Shown piece after piece: positions 301 to 8,589 of a stretch of DNA of 15,526 bases; position 1 is the stretch's first letter, and the number at the start of each line of letters is the position of its first letter. Position numbers and translations under genes: made by a program. The stretch is from the IMG/VR virus record IMGVR_UViG_2869924733_000009. One strand, 5' to 3'. Origin of the DNA: a virus. Lineage: Duplodnaviria; Heunggongvirae; Uroviricota; Caudoviricetes. Below the pieces are notes generated by a model. That model saw nothing but the letters and a program-made list of their open reading frames with translations. It searched no databases and had not been told where the DNA came from.

Positions 301-1451
301 TACCGCTACACTTTTGCCAGTCCATGTTTGCCTCCGGGGAATGGGCTGACGGTTTCCATAAAATGGCGAACTTTTTTCAACAGTTGCCACATTGAGCGGC
401 ACTGATGATTACGCGTTATTGTGTCGTGAAGTGCCTGCCATAGCCGTTCAACATGATTCACCCATGGCGAGTAAACCGGCTGATAAATGACCCTGAACTT
501 CGGGTTCTCCTTCAGCCAGCTCTGTGTTTCCCGGCTTTTGTGGATAATGTAGTTGTCCACGATCAGCGTGATGGTTTTCGCCCGACGGTATGTCGCTTTA
601 AGCCGCTTCAGCAGGCTGATGAACAGCGCCGAACTTTTGCTGTTGCCGCCCACATAGCTGACTTTACCTGTCCCGCTGTGCAGCGCTCCGGCCAGATAAT
701 ATTTTTCATTCTGTCCCGGCGTGACCACCCGTTTTTGCTGTCCTCGCAGTTGCCAGTCCGCACCGATTTTGGGATGAAGATGGATATCCACTTCATCTTC
801 ATAAAAGACCGGATGCTCTGCGCTGCATTCGTCCAGTGCTTTATGGATTGCTGCCATCTTTTCATCTTTATACGGGTCACGGATACGCAGAGTTGGCGCA
901 GCCCTTCGCCACACAATCCCCGCAGACGGCAACCAGCGGCGAACGGTTCCGGCATTTAACTGGCAACCGGTTATCTCATTGATTTTTATTGCCAGCAGTT
1001 CTGTACTCCAGCGTGAACGCTGGTAGCCAAAGTCGCCGGGAGAATGTTTTACCAGCTCACGTAACAGTGTGCAGATATGCTCAAACGGCCAGCGACGGGC
1101 ACGCCCGGCAGGTAATGATTTCAGTCCCTCAACACCCGACTGCGTGAACCAGTTAATCCAGCGTCCAACAGAGGAACGGGCGCAGCAGAGCGTTCTGGCA
1201 ACGTCGCTGACACGGTCGCCCCGGTGCAGCATCAGCATGGCAGTCAGTCTGCGGGCATAATTTTTATCGTGTGTTTTATGGATGGCTTTCTGCATCAGGC
1301 GTCGTTCGTCACGGGAAATTGGTGCTATGATCGGCATTGCTCAGTCCGGTTGGTGATTTGTTTTGATTTGGCGATTGATCAGATCGCACAATCCGGGCTA
1401 AGTTCCCTCAAAGTGATCTACTATTCCGCGCAGCTATTTAGTTCCCGAAAA
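260..1451 (-). mobile_element. IS630-family insertion sequence (~1.19 kb) flanked by TA at 258-259 and 1452-1453
   Basis: Single transposase ORF bracketed by terminal inverted repeats: left 260-298 CATTTCGGGAA[TACTGTTCAACA]CTAAATAGCTGCGC, right (reverse complement of 1428-1451) TTTTCGGGAACTAAATAGCTGCGC. Left repeat carries a 12-bp internal insertion. TA duplication is the IS630/Tc1-mariner signature. Confidence 0.75.
306..1337 (-). CDS. IS630-family DDE transposase (343 aa)
   Basis: N-terminal HTH region, C-terminal DDE_3-like region with motif YSPWVNHVERLW typical of IS630/Tc1 transposases; lies between the terminal inverted repeats. Confidence 0.85.
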   Translation of the reverse strand: MPIIAPISRDERRLMQKAIHKTHDKNYARRLTAMLMLHRGDRVSDVARTLCCARSSVGRWINWFTQSGVEGLKSLPAGRARRWPFEHICTLLRELVKHSPGDFGYQRSRWSTELLAIKINEITGCQLNAGTVRRWLPSAGIVWRRAAPTLRIRDPYKDEKMAAIHKALDECSAEHPVFYEDEVDIHLHPKIGADWQLRGQQKRVVTPGQNEKYYLAGALHSGTGKVSYVGGNSKSSALFISLLKRLKATYRRAKTITLIVDNYIIHKSRETQSWLKENPKFRVIYQPVYSPWVNHVERLWQALHDTITRNHQCRSMWQLLKKVRHFMETVSPFPGGKHGLAKV

Positions 1452-2497: not shown

Positions 2498-2571
2498 ACC
2501 AGCATAAATCCGGTAGCGCCTTCCTCCGGGTTTGTGCTTCACTTTATCCCATCTCATTTTTTTACACACAA

Positions 2572-2614
2572 AATGTACTAAAAGTACTTTACAACAATGA
2601 ACGCAAAGTACATT
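2572..2614. promoter_or_regulatory. Operator-like palindromic cluster downstream of the repressor gene (OL-like candidate)
   Basis: AATGTACT (2572-2579) and AGTACATT (2607-2614) form an inverted pair around the perfect 10-bp palindrome AAAGTACTTT (2581-2590); shares the AGTACATT motif with the divergent promoter region. Confidence 0.35.
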
Positions 2615-2732
2615 ATATGCCTGCCACCCACCCCGCCCCACAGAATGCAGGGCAATACTTCGAGTTACCAGGCAGTGGTCAGGGGTTAAGTAGCCAGCCC
2701 GAGGCGTAAGAACATGACGGCAGGGTTCAACT

Positions 2733-2740
2733 TTAATAAC
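2733..2740. repeat. 8-bp target-site duplication TTAATAAC of the outer IS66-family copy (partner at 8213-8220)
   Basis: Identical 8-mers directly abut both GTAAGCG... termini of the element; 8-bp duplication is characteristic of the IS66 family. Confidence 0.85.
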
Positions 2741-2772
2741 GTAAGCGCCCCGAGAAGTACGTAGCGTAAGGA

Positions 2773-3630
2773 TTATTTTACAGACGAGAAGTTCCAGGGC
2801 AGCAGTTCATGCACTTGGTTCGACGGCCAGTCATTGAGCTTCTCGATCACTTCGCGCAACCAGTCCTCCGGCTCCACTTCGTTCTGTTTGCAGGTGACCA
2901 GCAGACTGTAGATGATCGCCGCACTTTCTCCTCCCTTGTCTGAGCCGAAAAAGAGATAATTTTTTCTTCCAACCGCCACCGATCGTAACGCGTTTTCACC
3001 GATGTTGTTGTCTATTTCCACCCAGCCGTCACGACAGAACTCGTTCAGCGCATTCCAGTGATTCAGGATATAGTCGAACGCCTTCGCCATCTCCGCATGT
3101 TTCGACAGCGTTTTCCTCTGCAACTGTATCCAGTCGTACAACGACTGCATCAACTGGACGCTTCTGGCTTTTCTGACTGCAAGCCGTTCCTCTGCCGGAC
3201 TGCCACGTATCTCCGCTTCTATGTCGTATAACTCTGCTATCCGTCTGAGCGCTTCCTGAGTCATTTCTGTCGGACGGCGCACATCCTCGTCATGGATTTT
3301 TCGGCGGGCGTGGGCCAGGCACCCGGCTTCCTTCACCCGGCCCGTTTCGTACAGTACGTTATAACCTGCATAGGCATCAGCCTGCAGTACGCCCTGATAC
3401 TTTGCCAGGTGGAGCTGCGGATGTTCTCCTTTGCGATCTGCCGAATACGCGAACCAGACGGCTGCCGGCAGGGATGAACCCGCATTACGATCATCCCTGA
3501 CGTATACCCACAGACGACCCGTTTTCGTCTTTCCGTTCCCCGGGGCCAGTACTTTCACCGGAGTGTCATCTGCGTGCACCTTTCCTGCCTCCAGAACATA
3601 GTCATTCAGCGCTATATACAGAGGACGGAG
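2773..3630 (-). pseudogene. IS66 tnpC C-terminal fragment of copy B (equivalent to residues ~266-533)
   Basis: 268-aa ORF identical to the copy A TnpC C-terminus except one residue (HWNALNEF versus HWNTLNEF); severed from its N-terminus by copy A. Confidence 0.85.
3623..3630. repeat. 8-bp target-site duplication GGACGGAG of the nested IS66-family copy A (partner at 6385-6392)
   Basis: Identical 8-mers flank copy A; the uninterrupted sequence CAGAGGACGGAGTTTGTC is present once in copy A's own tnpC (reverse complement of ~5497-5514). Confidence 0.9.
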
Positions 3631-3712
3631 GTAAGCGCCCCATCAGCGACGTCTTGTGAAAATTGTCCTGTCTGGCAACAATCGCGCCCATCTATATTGA
3701 TGGACACGAACG

Positions 3713-4387
3713 ATGAATTCCCAGACAACAAAAGATATTCCCTGCTTCCGTTCTTATTTGCCTGATGCCCTACGTTTAAGATTTGAAGATAAACTGACCA
3801 TCCGGGCCATCGCTCAGCGTCTGGGTCTCAGTCATTCCACAATACATACGCTTTTTCAGCGATTTCTTGCATCCGGTATCGCATGGCCATTGCCCGATTC
3901 AGTTTCATTCGCTCAACTTGACGCCATCCTTTATGCCAACAGAAAGAAGGAATTAACAGAGCCTCAAATCAGAGAAGGCTCATGGCGAAAAGAACGGCGA
4001 ACCAGCTATAGCCGTGAATTTAAGGTCCGTCTGGCTAAGCAGGCGTTACAGCCTGGGGCTGTTGTTGCCCGGATCGCCAGAGAACACGATATCAATAATA
4101 ACCTGCTGTTTAAATGGAAAAGCCAGTACGAGGACGGCTTACTGAGCGATGATGACATACAGGAATGCATGCCTGTCCCGGTGGCACTGACTGATACGCC
4201 GGAGCCGACCAGACCAGTTACAAATCCCTTCTGGCGTAACAAGCATGATGAGCGCCCTGAGGGGGCTCCCGGAAACGTCCCACGGTGCGAGCTGCATCTT
4301 AAATCAGGTGTGGTAAAACTGTTTGACCCTCTCACTCCGGAACTGTTACGGGCGCTAATCCGCGAAATGAAAGGGGGTATCCGATGA
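3713..4387 (+). CDS. tnpA: IS66-family accessory protein TnpA (orf1), 224 aa
   Basis: HTH-containing; C-terminal half (SYSREFKVRLAKQALQPGAVVARIAREHDINNNLLFKWK) matches the IS66/IS3-type orf1 pattern; stop overlaps the tnpB start (ATGA). Confidence 0.8.
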   Translation: MNSQTTKDIPCFRSYLPDALRLRFEDKLTIRAIAQRLGLSHSTIHTLFQRFLASGIAWPLPDSVSFAQLDAILYANRKKELTEPQIREGSWRKERRTSYSREFKVRLAKQALQPGAVVARIAREHDINNNLLFKWKSQYEDGLLSDDDIQECMPVPVALTDTPEPTRPVTNPFWRNKHDERPEGAPGNVPRCELHLKSGVVKLFDPLTPELLRALIREMKGGIR

Positions 4388-4731
4388 TAACGCTGCCGAC
4401 CGGTACCAAAATCTGGATCATCGCTGGCATCACAGATATGCGTTGTGGCTTCAATGGCCTGGCTTCGAAGGTGCAGAACACGCTGAAAGATGACCCGTTC
4501 TCCGGGCATATCTTCGTCTTCCGGGGCCGCAGTGGCAAAATGGTGAAAATACTGTGGGCCGATCGTGACGGGTTATGCCTGTTCGCCAAACGCCTGGAAC
4601 GGGGCCGCTTCGTCTGGCCGGTGACCCGGGAAGGGAAAGTGCACCTGACGCCAGCTCAGTTATCCATGCTACTGGAGGGGATCGCGTGGCAACATCCCAA
4701 ACGGACAGAACGGCCTGGCATCCGGATATAA
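4384..4731 (+). CDS. tnpB: IS66-family TnpB (orf2), 115 aa
   Basis: Typical size and sequence (MITLPTGTKIWIIAGITDMRCGFNGLA...); translationally coupled to tnpA. Confidence 0.85.
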   Translation: MITLPTGTKIWIIAGITDMRCGFNGLASKVQNTLKDDPFSGHIFVFRGRSGKMVKILWADRDGLCLFAKRLERGRFVWPVTREGKVHLTPAQLSMLLEGIAWQHPKRTERPGIRI

Positions 4732-4750
4732 CCCGTGATAAAACAAGGGA

Positions 4751-6352
4751 ATGAACAATGAACTCCCCGATGATATTGAGCTGCTTAAAGCCATGTTGCG
4801 TAAGCAACAGAGTCGGCTTCGACAGTATGCCTGTCAGGTCGCGGGCTATGAGCAGGAAATTGAACGGCTGAAAGCGCAACTCGACAGGTTGCGTCGTATG
4901 TTGTTCGGCCAGAGTTCAGAGAAAAAGCGTCATAAGCTTGAAAATCAGATCCGACAGGCAGAAAAACGACTGTCGGAACTGGAAAACCGGCTGAACACAG
5001 CCAGAAATCTTCTGGAAGATGCATCGTCAGTCACAGATTCACCTGACACCAGTCCCCCGTCAGAAAACCCGATCGCCAGTAAGCCTGAATCCCCGGGACG
5101 AAAATCTTCACGAAAACCGCTGCCGGCAGAACTTCCCCGGGAGACACATCGCCTTCTGCCTGCTGAAACCAGTTGCCCGGCCTGTGGAGGTGTTCTGAAA
5201 GAAATGGGGGAAACAATCTCAGAGCAACTGGATATCATTAATACCGCCTTTAAAGTTATCGAAACCATACGTCCCAAACTGGCCTGTAGCCGGTGTGATG
5301 TCATCGTTCAGGCACCACTTCCCCCTAAACCGATCGAACGCGGTTATGCCAGTGCAGGGTTACTTGCACGGATCCTGGTCAGCAAATATATGGAACATAT
5401 CCCTTTATATCGCCAGTCAGAAATATACGCGCGACAGGGCGTGGAGCTGAGCCGTAATACCATGGTGCGCTGGGTATCAGAAATGGCAGACAAACTCCGT
5501 CCTCTGTATATAGCGCTGAATGACTATGTTCTGGAGGCAGGAAAGGTGCACGCAGATGACACTCCGGTGAAAGTACTGGCCCCGGGGAACGGAAAGACGA
5601 AAACGGGTCGTCTGTGGGTATACGTCAGGGATGATCGTAATGCGGGTTCATCCCTGCCGGCAGCCGTCTGGTTCGCGTATTCGGCAGATCGCAAAGGAGA
5701 ACATCCGCAGCTCCACCTGGCAAAGTATCAGGGCGTACTGCAGGCTGATGCCTATGCAGGTTATAACGTACTGTACGAAACGGGCCGGGTGAAGGAAGCC
5801 GGGTGCCTGGCCCACGCCCGCCGAAAAATCCATGACGAGGATGTGCGCCGTCCGACAGAAATGACTCAGGAAGCGCTCAGACGGATAGCAGAGTTATACG
5901 ACATAGAAGCGGAGATACGTGGCAGTCCGGCAGAGGAACGGCTTGCAGTCAGAAAAGCCAGAAGCGTCCAGTTGATGCAGTCGTTGTACGACTGGATACA
6001 GTTGCAGAGGAAAACGCTGTCGAAACATGCGGAGATGGCGAAGGCGTTCGACTATATCCTGAATCACTGGAATACGCTGAACGAGTTCTGTCGTGACGGC
6101 TGGGTGGAAATAGACAACAACATCGGTGAAAACGCGTTACGATCGGTGGCGGTTGGAAGAAAAAATTATCTCTTTTTCGGCTCAGACAAGGGAGGAGAAA
6201 GTGCGGCGATCATCTACAGTCTGCTGGTCACCTGCAAACAGAACGAAGTGGAGCCGGAGGACTGGTTGCGCGAAGTGATCGAGAAGCTCAATGACTGGCC
6301 GTCGAACCAAGTGCATGAACTGCTGCCCTGGAACTTCTCGTCTGTAAAATAA
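4751..6352 (+). CDS. tnpC: IS66-family transposase TnpC (orf3), 533 aa
   Basis: N-terminal coiled-coil/leucine zipper, CPACGG...CSRC zinc-finger-like motif, DDE catalytic core region ([10 protein letters not shown]...); intact ORF. Confidence 0.9.
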
Positions 6353-6380
6353 TCCTTACGCTACGTACTTCTCGGGGCGC

Positions 6381-7092
6381 TTACGGACGGAGTTTGTCTG
6401 CCATTTCTGATACCCAGCGCACCATGGTATTACGGCTCAGCTCCACGCCCTGTCGCGCGTATATTTCTGACTGGCGATATAAAGGGATATGTTCCATATA
6501 TTTGCTGACCAGGATCCGTGCAAGTAACCCTGCACTGGCATAACCGCGTTCGATCGGTTTAGGGGGAAGTGGTGCCTGAACGATGACATCACACCGGCTA
6601 CAGGCCAGTTTGGGACGTATGGTTTCGATAACTTTAAAGGCGGTATTAATGATATCCAGTTGCTCTGAGATTGTTTCCCCCATTTCTTTCAGAACACCTC
6701 CACAGGCCGGGCAACTGGTTTCAGCAGGCAGAAGGCGATGTGTCTCCCGGGGATTCAGGCTTACTGGCGATCGGGTTTTCTGACGGGGGACTGGTGTCAG
6801 GTGAATCTGTGACTGACGATGCATCTTCCAGAAGATTTCTGGCTGTGTTCAGCCGGTTTTCCAGTTCCGACAGTCGTTTTTCTGCCTGTCGGATCTGATT
6901 TTCAAGCTTATGACGCTTTTTCTCTGAACTCTGGCCGAACAACATACGACGCAACCTGTCGAGTTGCGCTTTCAGCCGTTCAATTTCCTGCTCATAGCCC
7001 GCGACCTGACAGGCATACTGTCGAAGCCGACTCTGTTGCTTACGCAACATGGCTTTAAGCAGCTCAATATCATCGGGGAGTTCATTGTTCAT
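6381..7092 (-). pseudogene. IS66 tnpC N-terminal portion of copy B, frameshifted by a 44-bp deletion between CCCCGGG direct repeats
   Basis: Two overlapping ORFs (6721-7092 and 6381-6824) together cover TnpC residues 1-~265. Copy A has two CCCCGGG copies (5091-5097, 5135-5141); copy B has one (about 6746-6752) and lacks the 44 bp between. The fragment's stop codon is supplied by the copy A terminus. Confidence 0.85.
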
Positions 7093-7111
7093 TCCCTTGT
7101 TTTATCACGGG

Positions 7112-7459
7112 TTATATCCGGATGCCAGGCCGTTCTGTCCGTTTGGGATGTTGCCACGCGATCCCCTCCAGTAGCATGGATAACTGAGCTGGCGTCAGGT
7201 GCACTTTCCCTTCCCGGGTCACCGGCCAGACGAAGCGGCCCCGTTCCAGGCGTTTGGCGAACAGGCATAACCCGTCACGATCGGCCCACAGTATTTTCAC
7301 CATTTTGCCACTGCGGCCCCGGAAGACGAAGATATGCCCGGAGAACGGGTCATCTTTCAGCGTGTTCTGCACCTTCGAAGCCAGGCCATTGAAGCCACAA
7401 CGCATATCTGTGATGCCAGCGATGATCCAGATTCTGGTACCGGTCGGCAGCGTTATCAT
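7112..7459 (-). CDS. tnpB: IS66-family TnpB of copy B, 115 aa (one K-to-R difference from copy A)
   Basis: Near-identical to 4384-4731 on the opposite strand. Confidence 0.8.
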   Translation of the reverse strand: MITLPTGTRIWIIAGITDMRCGFNGLASKVQNTLKDDPFSGHIFVFRGRSGKMVKILWADRDGLCLFAKRLERGRFVWPVTREGKVHLTPAQLSMLLEGIAWQHPKRTERPGIRI

Positions 7460-8130
7460 CGGATACCCCCTTTCATTTCGCGGATTAGCGCCCGTAACAG
7501 TTCCGGAGTGAGAGGGTCAAACAGTTTTACCACACCTGATTTAAGATGCAGCTCGCACCGTGGGACGTTTCCGGGAGCCCCCTCAGGGCGCTCATCATGC
7601 TTGTTACGCCAGAAGGGATTTGTAACTGGTCTGGTCGGCTCCGGCGTATCAGTCAGTGCCACCGGGACAGGCATGCATTCCTGTATGTCATCATCGCTCA
7701 GTAAGCCGTCCTCGTACTGGCTTTTCCATTTAAACAGCAGGTTATCATTGATATCGTGTTCTCTGGCGATCCGGGCAACAACAGCCCCAGGCTGTAACGC
7801 CTGCTTAGCCAGACGGACCTTAAATTCACGGCTATAGCTGGTTCGCCGTTCTTTTCGCCATGAGCCTTCTCTGATTTGAGGCTCTGTTAATTCCTTCTTT
7901 CTGTTGGCATAAAGGATGGCGTCAAGTTGAGCGAATGAAACTGAATCGGGCAATGGCCATGCGATACCGGATGCAAGAAATCGCTGAAAAAGCGTATGTA
8001 TTGTGGAATGACTGAGACCCAGACGCTGAGCGATGGCCCGGATGGTCAGTTTATCTTCAAATCTTAAACGCAGGGCATCAGGCAAATAAGAACGGAAGCA
8101 GGGAATATCTTTTGTTGTCTGGGAATTCAT
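7456..8130 (-). CDS. tnpA: IS66-family TnpA of copy B, 224 aa (one N-to-D difference from copy A)
   Basis: Near-identical to 3713-4387 on the opposite strand. Confidence 0.8.
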   Translation of the reverse strand: MNSQTTKDIPCFRSYLPDALRLRFEDKLTIRAIAQRLGLSHSTIHTLFQRFLASGIAWPLPDSVSFAQLDAILYANRKKELTEPQIREGSWRKERRTSYSREFKVRLAKQALQPGAVVARIAREHDINDNLLFKWKSQYEDGLLSDDDIQECMPVPVALTDTPEPTRPVTNPFWRNKHDERPEGAPGNVPRCELHLKSGVVKLFDPLTPELLRALIREMKGGIR

Positions 8131-8274
8131 CGTTCGTGTCCATCAATATAGATGGGCGCGATTGTTGCCAGACAGGACAATTTTCACAAGACGTCGCTGA
8201 TGGGGCGCTTACTTAATAACTATGCAGCAGGTTTTTGTTCCGCTACCCCGGCGTTAAGGGGAAATGAGGTCAGC

Positions 8275-8430
8275 ATGGATACTATCGATCTTGGCAACAA
8301 CGAATCTCTGGTGTACGGCGTGTTTCCCAACCAGGACGGCACCTTCACCGCAATGACGTATACCAAAAGCAAAACGTTTAAAACCGAATCTGGAGCGCGT
8401 CGCTGGCTGGAAAGAAATTCAGGTGGGTGA
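8275..8430 (+). CDS. Small prophage early-region protein, 51 aa (YdaF/YdaG-type by size and position; tentative)
   Basis: ATG at 8275 with GAGG 7 nt upstream. The longer 8152 ORF on the track begins inside the IS66 terminus and is rejected as the start. Confidence 0.55.
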   Translation: MDTIDLGNNESLVYGVFPNQDGTFTAMTYTKSKTFKTESGARRWLERNSGG

Positions 8431-8431
8431 T

Positions 8432-8560
8432 ATGGATTTCGACACAATCATGGAAAAGGCTTACGAAGAATACTTCGAAGGCCTTGCCGAAGGCGAAGAA
8501 GCTCTCAGCTTCAGCGAATTTAAACAGGCGCTTTCCAGTTCGGCAAAATCTAACGGCTGA
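8432..8560 (+). CDS. Small prophage protein, 42 aa (MDFDTIMEKAYEEYFEGLAEGEEALSFSEFKQALSSSAKSNG); absent from the ORF track because of its length
   Basis: ATG at 8432 lies 1 nt after the TGA of the preceding gene, with GGTGGG just upstream; clean ORF ending TGA 8558-8560; acidic helical-looking peptide. Confidence 0.5.
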   Translation: MDFDTIMEKAYEEYFEGLAEGEEALSFSEFKQALSSSAKSNG

Positions 8561-8589
8561 TAAGCGAAACAGCACCGCGAGGAATCAGC

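Follow-up and report, generated by a model that had tools for sequence, protein, structure and literature searches.

An intact ISSfl3 element nested in opposite orientation within the tnpC gene of an older, defective ISSfl3 copy

The window analyzed here, a stretch of 15,526 nucleotides, is part of NCBI record CP027027.1 and carries two copies of one insertion sequence, referred to as copy A and copy B. Copy B occupies the intergenic stretch that separates ydfA from a dicA-like repressor gene in a Qin-like cryptic prophage adjoining mtfA; the host locus would be a cryptic prophage on a Shigella-type chromosome. The Shigella assignment draws on a chromosomal ipaH-type gene (L002), a plasmid in the same assembly that carries OspC (L124) and the absence of the record from the E. 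coli RefSeq set. The insertion stands 62 bp upstream of ydfA, parting the repressor gene from the ydfABC-dicF-dicB genes, and probably uncouples this operon from its native control region. The following features were identified (positions refer to the window).

2733-2740: left 8-bp target duplication TTAATAAC from copy B; occurs once in IS-free E. coli genomes
2741-3630, minus strand: IRR-proximal part of copy B (IS positions 2754 to 1865), carrying a 3' fragment of tnpC (ORF 2773-3579, 268 aa)
3623-3630: left 8-bp duplication GGACGGAG from the insertion of copy A; belongs to the tnpC sequence of copy B
3631-6384, plus strand: copy A, complete ISSfl3, 2754 bp; terminal inverted repeats begin GTAAGCGCCCC (11/11 matches, 17/26 overall)
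3713-4387, plus strand: tnpA of copy A, 224 aa; HTH_Tnp_1; NF038385, 283.9 bits (cut-off 150)
4384-4731, plus strand: tnpB of copy A, 115 aa; PF05717; NF033819, 125.6 bits (cut-off 50)
4751-6352, plus strand: tnpC of copy A, intact DDE transposase, 533 aa; LZ, zf-IS66, DDE_Tnp_IS66 and C-terminal domains; NF033517, 465.8 bits (cut-off 180)
5090-5142, plus strand: two 9-bp direct repeats TCCCCGGGA in copy A (5090-5098 and 5134-5142), bounding the 44 bp absent from copy B
5495-5502, plus strand: site CTCCGTCC, the reverse complement of GGACGGAG; single copy in tnpC of copy A, duplicated in copy B
6385-6392: right 8-bp duplication GGACGGAG
6385-8212, minus strand: IRL-proximal part of copy B (IS positions 1872 to 1) with the 44-bp deletion (junction at 6745-6753)
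6721-7092, minus strand: N-terminal, frameshifted tnpC stub of copy B, 123 aa, the diagnostic product of the 44-bp deletion
7112-7459, minus strand: tnpB of copy B, intact, 115 aa, R9 allele
7456-8130, minus strand: tnpA of copy B, intact, 224 aa, D129 allele
8213-8220: right 8-bp target duplication TTAATAAC from copy B

In copy A, tnpA, tnpB and tnpC are all intact, and the tnpA stop overlaps the tnpB start as ATGA (4384-4387). All three proteins scored above the curated IS66 cut-offs (TnpC also matched PF03050 with an E value of 4.5e-101), in agreement with the IS66-family assignment made in the preliminary description. The other traits of the family are likewise present: a DDE TnpC preceded by tnpA and tnpB, imperfect terminal inverted repeats and an 8-bp target site duplication, which is the rule for IS66 elements (PMC6778807). 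Elements whose transposase is annotated in RefSeq as 'IS66-like element ISSfl3 family transposase' match copy A at 99.6-99.9% identity along all of its 2754 bp. We provisionally follow this name, while the original pCP301 annotation labels the same element ISSfl4. A protein identical to TnpC of copy A is encoded at two further sites of the same chromosome.

A repeat search of the window against itself yielded three inverted-repeat pairs: 3631-5098 with 6745-8212 (1468 nt), 5134-5502 with 6385-6753 (369 nt) and 2740-3630 with 5495-6385 (891 nt). These match a layout in which copy A splits copy B, giving one arm of 890 bp and another of 1828 bp on the B side and 1872 bp on the A side, in agreement with the 890 bp and 1.83 kb first stated. 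Both ends of copy A begin with GTAAGCGCCCC. On the plus strand, GGACGGAG occurs only at 3623 and 6385, directly bracketing copy A, and its reverse complement occurs once, at 5495, within tnpC of copy A itself. The octamer TTAATAAC is found only at 2733 and 8213, bracketing copy B. Both duplications and the single internal site had been described beforehand and were recovered here; the chance probability of each 8-bp match is about 1/65,536. An intact ISSfl3 sits inside an older, defective ISSfl3, in the opposite orientation and interrupting its tnpC.

The successive states of the locus are also found in other genomes. An 800-bp query representing the IS-free junction with a single TTAATAAC aligned without gaps at 99.8-99.9% identity among the matches listed, and 208 E. 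coli genomes contain most of this query. Copy B without copy A, likewise lacking the 44 bp, is present at the same site in L007 (CP026824.1) and L010 (UYIS01000021.1), and copy B alone also occupies this site in L120. When copy A and one GGACGGAG were removed in silico, a 2710-bp element was restored that is 100% identical to the uninterrupted copies L114, L117, L121 and L123. Together with the repeat pairs, boundaries and duplications, these data bear out the nest at 2741-8212. The nested state itself is known from a single assembly, GCA_002943855.1. The A/B junction had no match when positions 3331-3930 were searched by megablast against 5426 complete E. coli genomes and 72,556 plasmids, and none in exact 35-mer scans of GTDB representatives and JGI metagenomes. 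The longest ORF over the junction (147 aa) matched no recorded protein because the gene caller had chosen a later start; in its 100-aa form, this junction-specific product is known from CP027027.1 alone.

Copies A and B differ by exactly four substitutions, as the 'handful' noted earlier had suggested, each being A in copy A and G in copy B when read in the orientation of copy A. The termini of the two copies are identical.

3772/8071: substitution in tnpA, synonymous
4097/7746: substitution in TnpA, N129 in copy A, D129 in copy B
4409/7434: substitution in TnpB, K9 in copy A, R9 in copy B
6074/3051: substitution in TnpC, T442 in copy A, A442 in copy B

In addition, copy B lacks 44 bp of tnpC, and the gene is frameshifted. 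The preliminary description had placed this deletion between 7-bp direct repeats (CCCCGGG); deletion and frameshift stand, but the repeats are 9 bp long (TCCCCGGGA). About a dozen further loci have the same deletion, among them L114 on the same chromosome, which has its own duplication GGCTTATA, and two loci on a plasmid of the same strain. The deletion is a marker of a dispersed defective ISSfl3 variant and not private to copy B. An origin in situ, by slippage between the 9-bp repeats after an intact element had inserted, was implied earlier and has the classic slippage signature of flanking direct repeats in its favor, as well as a copy without the deletion at the same ydfA-side junction in L008 (CP026875.1). 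The L008 copy, however, is recombinant and uninformative because its other flank differs. We consider an origin in situ rather unlikely, given the identical deletion at so many other loci, although the data would fit copy B as founder, product or converted copy of the deleted variant equally well.

Two successive ISSfl3 transpositions very probably explain the nest. In the first, copy B would have inserted between the dicA-like repressor gene and ydfA, duplicating TTAATAAC; it would either have arrived with the 44-bp deletion or have gained it before the strains that share copy B diverged. The second event would have taken place in the lineage of GCA_002943855.1, with the intact copy A being made from an autonomous copy in the same genome. 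The transposase would have cut tnpC of copy B at GGACGGAG with an 8-bp stagger and joined copy A in the opposite orientation, and gap repair would have created the second duplication. The chemistry would be staggered DDE strand transfer; to our knowledge, the biochemistry of IS66-family transposition is not worked out. As the outcome, copy A should still be autonomous, while copy B would be dead for TnpC with tnpA and tnpB intact. Transposition of IS679 reportedly needs all three proteins, TnpA, TnpB and TnpC.

The copy L001, located 2.9 Mb away on the same chromosome, differs from copy A by 1 nt, and copy A shares its alleles at 4097, 4409 and 6074 with L001 and L002, both on this chromosome. 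Copy B has the G alleles of its orthologues. Several strains share copy B, whereas copy A is found in one assembly alone and departs from a sister copy by a single nucleotide; ISSfl3 must therefore have been active in this lineage recently. ISSfl3 alleles have been reshuffled among loci, so that any donor named for copy A, and any timing given to the deletion in copy B, would be tentative.

Transposition of copy A into copy B could reflect a preference of ISSfl3 for its own sequence rather than a chance hit. The genome has at least nine copies, which amount to about 25 kb or only about 0.5% of the 5.04-Mb chromosome; a second array of ISSfl3 beside ISSfl3 exists in the same genome (L002), and tnpA of other copies contains tandem duplications of 8 bp, as long as an IS66 target duplication. 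Nevertheless, we regard such self-targeting as improbable. The sample is tiny, hits in dead IS copies are neutral and hence survive preferentially, and the observed duplications share no strong motif. Nor can the L002 array be counted as a simple nested insertion, a reading that was considered and rejected, as its inner copy is flanked by a 29-bp repeat and not an 8-bp one.

Homologous recombination or inversion between neighboring copies that had inserted separately is a far less probable origin of the nest than transposition of copy A into copy B. ISSfl3 copies do recombine in this genome: ATATGGAC flanks both L115, on its IRL side, and L116, on its IRR side, two copies 0.72 Mb apart that are in opposite orientation, and several ISSfl3 copies are without matching duplications. 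Such exchanges yield hybrids with mismatched flanks, not a contiguous element bracketed by an 8-mer from the interior of the other copy. Had the block inverted an even number of times, its structure would be unchanged, and the nested insertion would still have had to come first. An assembly artefact, with two ISSfl3 copies wrongly joined or nested where the true chromosome has a single copy, is barely credible: although the nest is seen in only one assembly, of a genome with at least nine chromosomal ISSfl3 copies or fragments and many other IS elements, a mis-join would not, at both junctions, duplicate perfectly an 8-bp sequence that is single in the intact element, mis-joined halves would not rebuild an element matching four other copies at 100% identity, the SNPs partition cleanly with A-lineage alleles in copy A and B-lineage alleles in copy B, and many 2.7-kb repeats are resolved in the record, one contig of 5.04 Mb presumably built from long reads.

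Comparison of other ISSfl3 copies revealed allele mixing and small lesions. At IS positions 467, 779 and 2444, six of the eight possible allele combinations were seen. Orthologous insertion sites carry differing strain-specific lesions, namely the 44-bp deletion, alone or with a duplication of 8 bp, or else a duplication of 5 bp. In tnpA of some copies, 8-bp tandem duplications are found, AATACATA at about IS position 203-210 and CATACAGG at about 518-525. The 5-bp tandem duplication in the S. boydii copies was compared with pCP301 as a possible IS2 scar, but the IS2 of pCP301 lies outside the element, which makes the comparison uninformative. Ten duplications gave no convincing consensus for an ISSfl3 target motif; CA at positions 5-6 in three of the ten and in both 8-bp 'scars' is a pattern picked post hoc. 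One speculative reading, which we think doubtful, is that Shigella ISSfl3 copies evolve in concert by frequent gene conversion and that the tnpA duplications may be scars of self-insertion, left by clean excision or aborted integration. If true, the scars would provide evidence from sequence, the first of its kind, for the way IS66-family elements depart from a site.

The assembled order corresponds to the un-inverted parental arrangement, with no allele exchange between copies A and B. Inversion between the arms is plausible; an exchange of flanks between ISSfl3 copies is seen at another place in the genome (L115/L116). Because the termini of copy B are identical to those of copy A, the 5.47-kb block as a whole could in principle be mobilized by the proteins of copy A. 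Such later inversion or mobilization would be a possible fate of the block; of its movement no trace was found, neither the sequence of the A/B junction nor the protein encoded across it occurring elsewhere in the E. coli genomes, plasmids, GTDB representatives, JGI metagenomes and protein records searched.

For annotation, the region should be described as one intact ISSfl3 in one defective ISSfl3 with the 44-bp deletion, not as five unrelated 'IS66 family transposase' fragments. For assembly, short reads cannot resolve the 5.5-kb inverted-repeat structure, and a flip is possible in principle. The event is real but ordinary, of a well-known kind, and leaves the knowledge of insertion sequences unchanged.

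ISSfl3, known from the Shigella flexneri virulence plasmid and from EIEC/Shigella chromosomes, agrees with copy A in its three genes and its ends, without structural difference; copy A would simply be a member of ISSfl3. The TnpA of copy A (224 aa) has an N-terminal HTH_23 domain that would be extra relative to the TnpA of IS679, and it would also be longer. Copy A has in common with IS66 and IS679, the prototypes of the family (Machida 1984 and Han 2001, as cited in PMC6778807 and PMC12898284), the order tnpA-tnpB-tnpC, a DDE TnpC, 8-bp duplications and imperfect terminal repeats starting with GTAA. The transposition mechanism of the family has been called insufficiently characterized (PMC12898284). 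Nested insertions are treated explicitly by IS-annotation pipelines (PMC4072520), and in IS-rich genomes one element likewise interrupts another while each keeps its own target duplication. Here, however, the same IS is involved twice, an autonomous copy lying inverted inside a non-autonomous deletion derivative. In a deletion of Agrobacterium pAt15955, mismatched 8-bp flanks were taken as evidence of IS-IS recombination (PMC6778807). The same signature is found between L115 and L116 in this genome, whereas both elements in the window keep matched duplications and show no recombination with each other in the assembly.

Comparison of the window with itself revealed three long inverted-repeat pairs and no more, which fits the preliminary description of 2741-8212 as an intact IS66-family element (copy A) nested in opposite orientation inside a near-identical, defective one (copy B). 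Direct inspection bore out the positions proposed for both copies and for the two 8-bp duplications:

2733-2740 and 8213-8220: TTAATAAC, duplication flanking copy B, with no other occurrence in the window
2741-3630 and 6385-8212: copy B, strand opposite to A
3623-3630 and 6385-6392: GGACGGAG, duplication flanking copy A
3631-6384, plus strand: copy A, 2754 bp, with GTAAGCGCCCC beginning each end
3631-5098 with 6745-8212: first inverted-repeat pair
5134-5502 with 6385-6753: second pair
2740-3630 with 5495-6385: third pair

The complement of GGACGGAG occurs only once inside A, in tnpC at 5495-5502, as had been stated; this 8-bp A-side overlap of the second and third pairs is the target site. Base-by-base comparison of the copies, described earlier as differing by few substitutions, gave exactly four (3772, 4097, 4409 and 6074 in A coordinates), at each of which copy A has A and copy B has G. 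The inverted arms, put at 890 bp and ~1.83 kb, measured 890 bp and, for the longer arms, 1828 bp versus 1872 bp. The reported 44-bp deletion indeed frameshifts tnpC of B, leaving a 123-aa stub, but the repeats bounding it are 9 bp long (TCCCCGGGA) and not 7 bp; the repeat remaining after deletion is the 9-bp B-side overlap of the first and second pairs (6745-6753).

Copy A encodes three proteins (224, 115 and 533 aa), which match HTH_Tnp_1, TnpB_IS66 and the complete IS66 transposase domain set in Pfam and score above the NCBIfam thresholds for IS66 TnpA, TnpB and transposase. The tnpA stop and tnpB start overlap in ATGA, and the terminal repeats match at 11/11 positions, then at 17/26. Full-length copies found by megablast in complete E. 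coli genomes are 99.6-99.9% identical to A, their transposase being annotated as 'IS66-like element ISSfl3 family'; the original pCP301 annotation labels the same element ISSfl4.

For the empty site, 2341-2740 was joined to 8221-8620 with one TTAATAAC retained. This 800-bp query gave gap-free matches of 99.8-99.9% identity among the matches listed, and most of it is present in 208 E. coli genomes. A 92-aa ORF spanning the end of B into ydfA is on record in 6 contigs. Two database loci, L007 (CP026824.1) and L010 (UYIS01000021.1), carry B without A, with the same site, duplication and 44-bp deletion. Removal of A and one GGACGGAG in silico yielded a 2710-bp element that is 100% identical to four uninterrupted copies: L114, at 0.39 Mb on the same chromosome with its own duplication (GGCTTATA), L123 on the plasmid of this strain and, from other strains, L117 and L121. 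Empty site, B-only state and reconstruction agree on the nest, and the preliminary observation holds together with its reading, apart from minor corrections. Entry of A into B by ordinary DDE transposition with an 8-bp staggered cut best explains it; we infer the cut and its repair, whereas their products are observed. An 8-bp duplication is a published hallmark of IS66 (PMC6778807).

It is possible that ISSfl3 prefers its own sequence as a target, as a second ISSfl3 array exists (locus L002) and the element makes up only ~0.5% of the chromosome, but the pattern is accounted for just as well by survival bias and the very small sample. The A/B junction was not found in 5426 E. coli genomes, 72,556 plasmids, GTDB representatives or JGI metagenomes, and its specific 100-aa product occurs in CP027027.1 only. 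A mis-assembly is nevertheless very unlikely, since it would not result in perfect duplications of an internal 8-mer, in two halves that together restore an element matching four others exactly, or in alleles that partition cleanly. Origin by recombination instead of transposition is ruled out by the matched duplications.

The window belongs to the 5.04-Mb chromosome CP027027.1 (assembly GCA_002943855.1), and its exact 2600-8400 segment is present in three database loci (L003, L009, L013). We infer a Shigella or enteroinvasive-type host, because the chromosome carries an ipaH-type gene (L002), a 149-kb plasmid of the same assembly an OspC-family gene (L124), and the E. coli RefSeq set lacks the record despite 99.7-100% identity of the flanks to E. 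coli. The two copies lie in a Qin-like cryptic prophage adjoining mtfA, whose genes include dicB, an exonuclease VIII gene and an integrase gene. Features mapped in the 15.5-kb window are:

306-1337, minus strand: IS630-family transposase gene, 343 aa
2078-2497: dicA-like repressor gene
8275: start codon of ydfA
9151-9202, plus strand: DicF sRNA, 76.7 bits
12394-12909, minus strand: truncated IS5-family transposase gene, 171 aa (281 aa in L010), lying between the genes for exonuclease VIII and integrase
14549-14635, minus strand: tRNA gene, 87 nt, close to the integrase/mtfA end of the prophage

Copy B lies 62 bp upstream of the ydfA start codon. Because it sits between the dicA-like gene and ydfABC-dicF-dicB (interval 2498-8274), it probably separates this operon from its native control region.

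Copy A has its alleles at 4097, 4409 and 6074 in common with L001 and L002 on the same chromosome, and differs from the L001 copy (yjaZ-rpoC intergenic region, 0.88 Mb) only at 3772. On these alleles, the source of A would be an autonomous ISSfl3 lineage resident in this genome, and its insertion recent. Copy B has the G alleles, as its orthologues do. There has been no exchange of sequence between A and B since A inserted, and the assembly shows the parental isomer, not inverted. Nor is the 44-bp deletion private to B: it recurs identically at roughly twelve other loci, of which some have 8-bp duplications of their own, and its 123-aa stub appears in 127 blocks of the protein collection. B therefore belongs to a non-autonomous variant that is dispersed. 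The copies at the yjaZ-rpoC site have identical unmatched flanks, yet that of L001 is intact whereas that of L117 has the deletion. Most parsimoniously, the deletion was already in B before A arrived; B may have inserted deleted, founded the variant or been converted.

Lesions were also seen in other copies. Exact 8-bp tandem duplications lie in tnpA of L005 (PSSP01000001.1; AATACATA x2, position about 203-218 along ISSfl3) and of L010, L118, L122, L125 and L126 (CATACAGG x2, about 518-533). These copies are otherwise near-identical ISSfl3, and 8 bp is the family's target-duplication length; the duplications may be scars of insertion and clean excision, or of aborted integration. Because CATACAGG duplication and 44-bp deletion occur together at several loci, the former would have arisen once and then spread. 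In one strain (L097-L106, CP026836.1; L015, NZ_CP026837.1, the S. boydii ATCC 49812 plasmid), a 5-bp tandem duplication (ACTGC after position 2106) splits tnpC in 12/12 ISSfl3 copies examined. They are spread over different sites, and several have an 8-bp duplication of their own; some of the sites are orthologous to sites with other variants in other strains. One lesion across dispersed copies points to gene conversion among them or trans-mobilisation. Positions 467, 779 and 2444 are biallelic among the ISSfl3 copies of L001-L126, with six of the eight possible combinations seen and therefore all four gametes for two site pairs, a pattern that would indicate recombination or gene conversion among copies.

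Several E. coli records (H1, H7, H11) have ISEc11 (IS110 family) annotated within the tnpB of ISSfl3. A metagenome contig (L023, 954-2393) has a 1.4-kb insert at position 917-920, and in several diverged relatives similarity ends upstream of 916-917, pointing to a site-specific IS-in-IS target or to a mosaic breakpoint. The second ISSfl3 cluster in the genome of the window (L002 8554-16907; CP027027.1, about 2.63 Mb) begins with IS[1-327] and a complete copy, followed by a 29-bp repeat of IS[299-327] and a further copy broken at 1763-1765 by some 2.5 kb of IS3-family sequence. It does not fit a simple insertion with 8-bp duplication; the orthologous L102 site (CP026836.1) has a single, plain copy whose outer flanks are the same.

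Copy A is complete, and B has intact tnpA and tnpB and termini identical to those of A, so in principle the whole 5472-bp block could move as one unit; a second copy of this block was not found. The arms would be adequate substrates for RecA-dependent inversion, and after inversion at either pair one intact element would remain. Elsewhere on CP027027.1, L115 (0.65 Mb, minus) and L116 (1.37 Mb, plus) are oppositely oriented copies 0.72 Mb apart. Because the L115 IRL flank and L116 IRR flank have ATATGGAC in common, recombination between ISSfl3 copies has occurred in this genome, the flanks being the signature of a roughly 0.72-Mb inversion through them. Further events there are likely, given that their reciprocal flanks are mismatched. 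Several other ISSfl3 copies lack matched flanks.

On Shigella virulence plasmids an inverted ISSfl3 pair brackets the effector gene ospI (L015 26607-34786; L096), a layout resembling a composite transposon. Nested IS insertions are common enough for annotation pipelines to model them (PMC4072520), and for this nest the element, its family and its behaviour are all already known.
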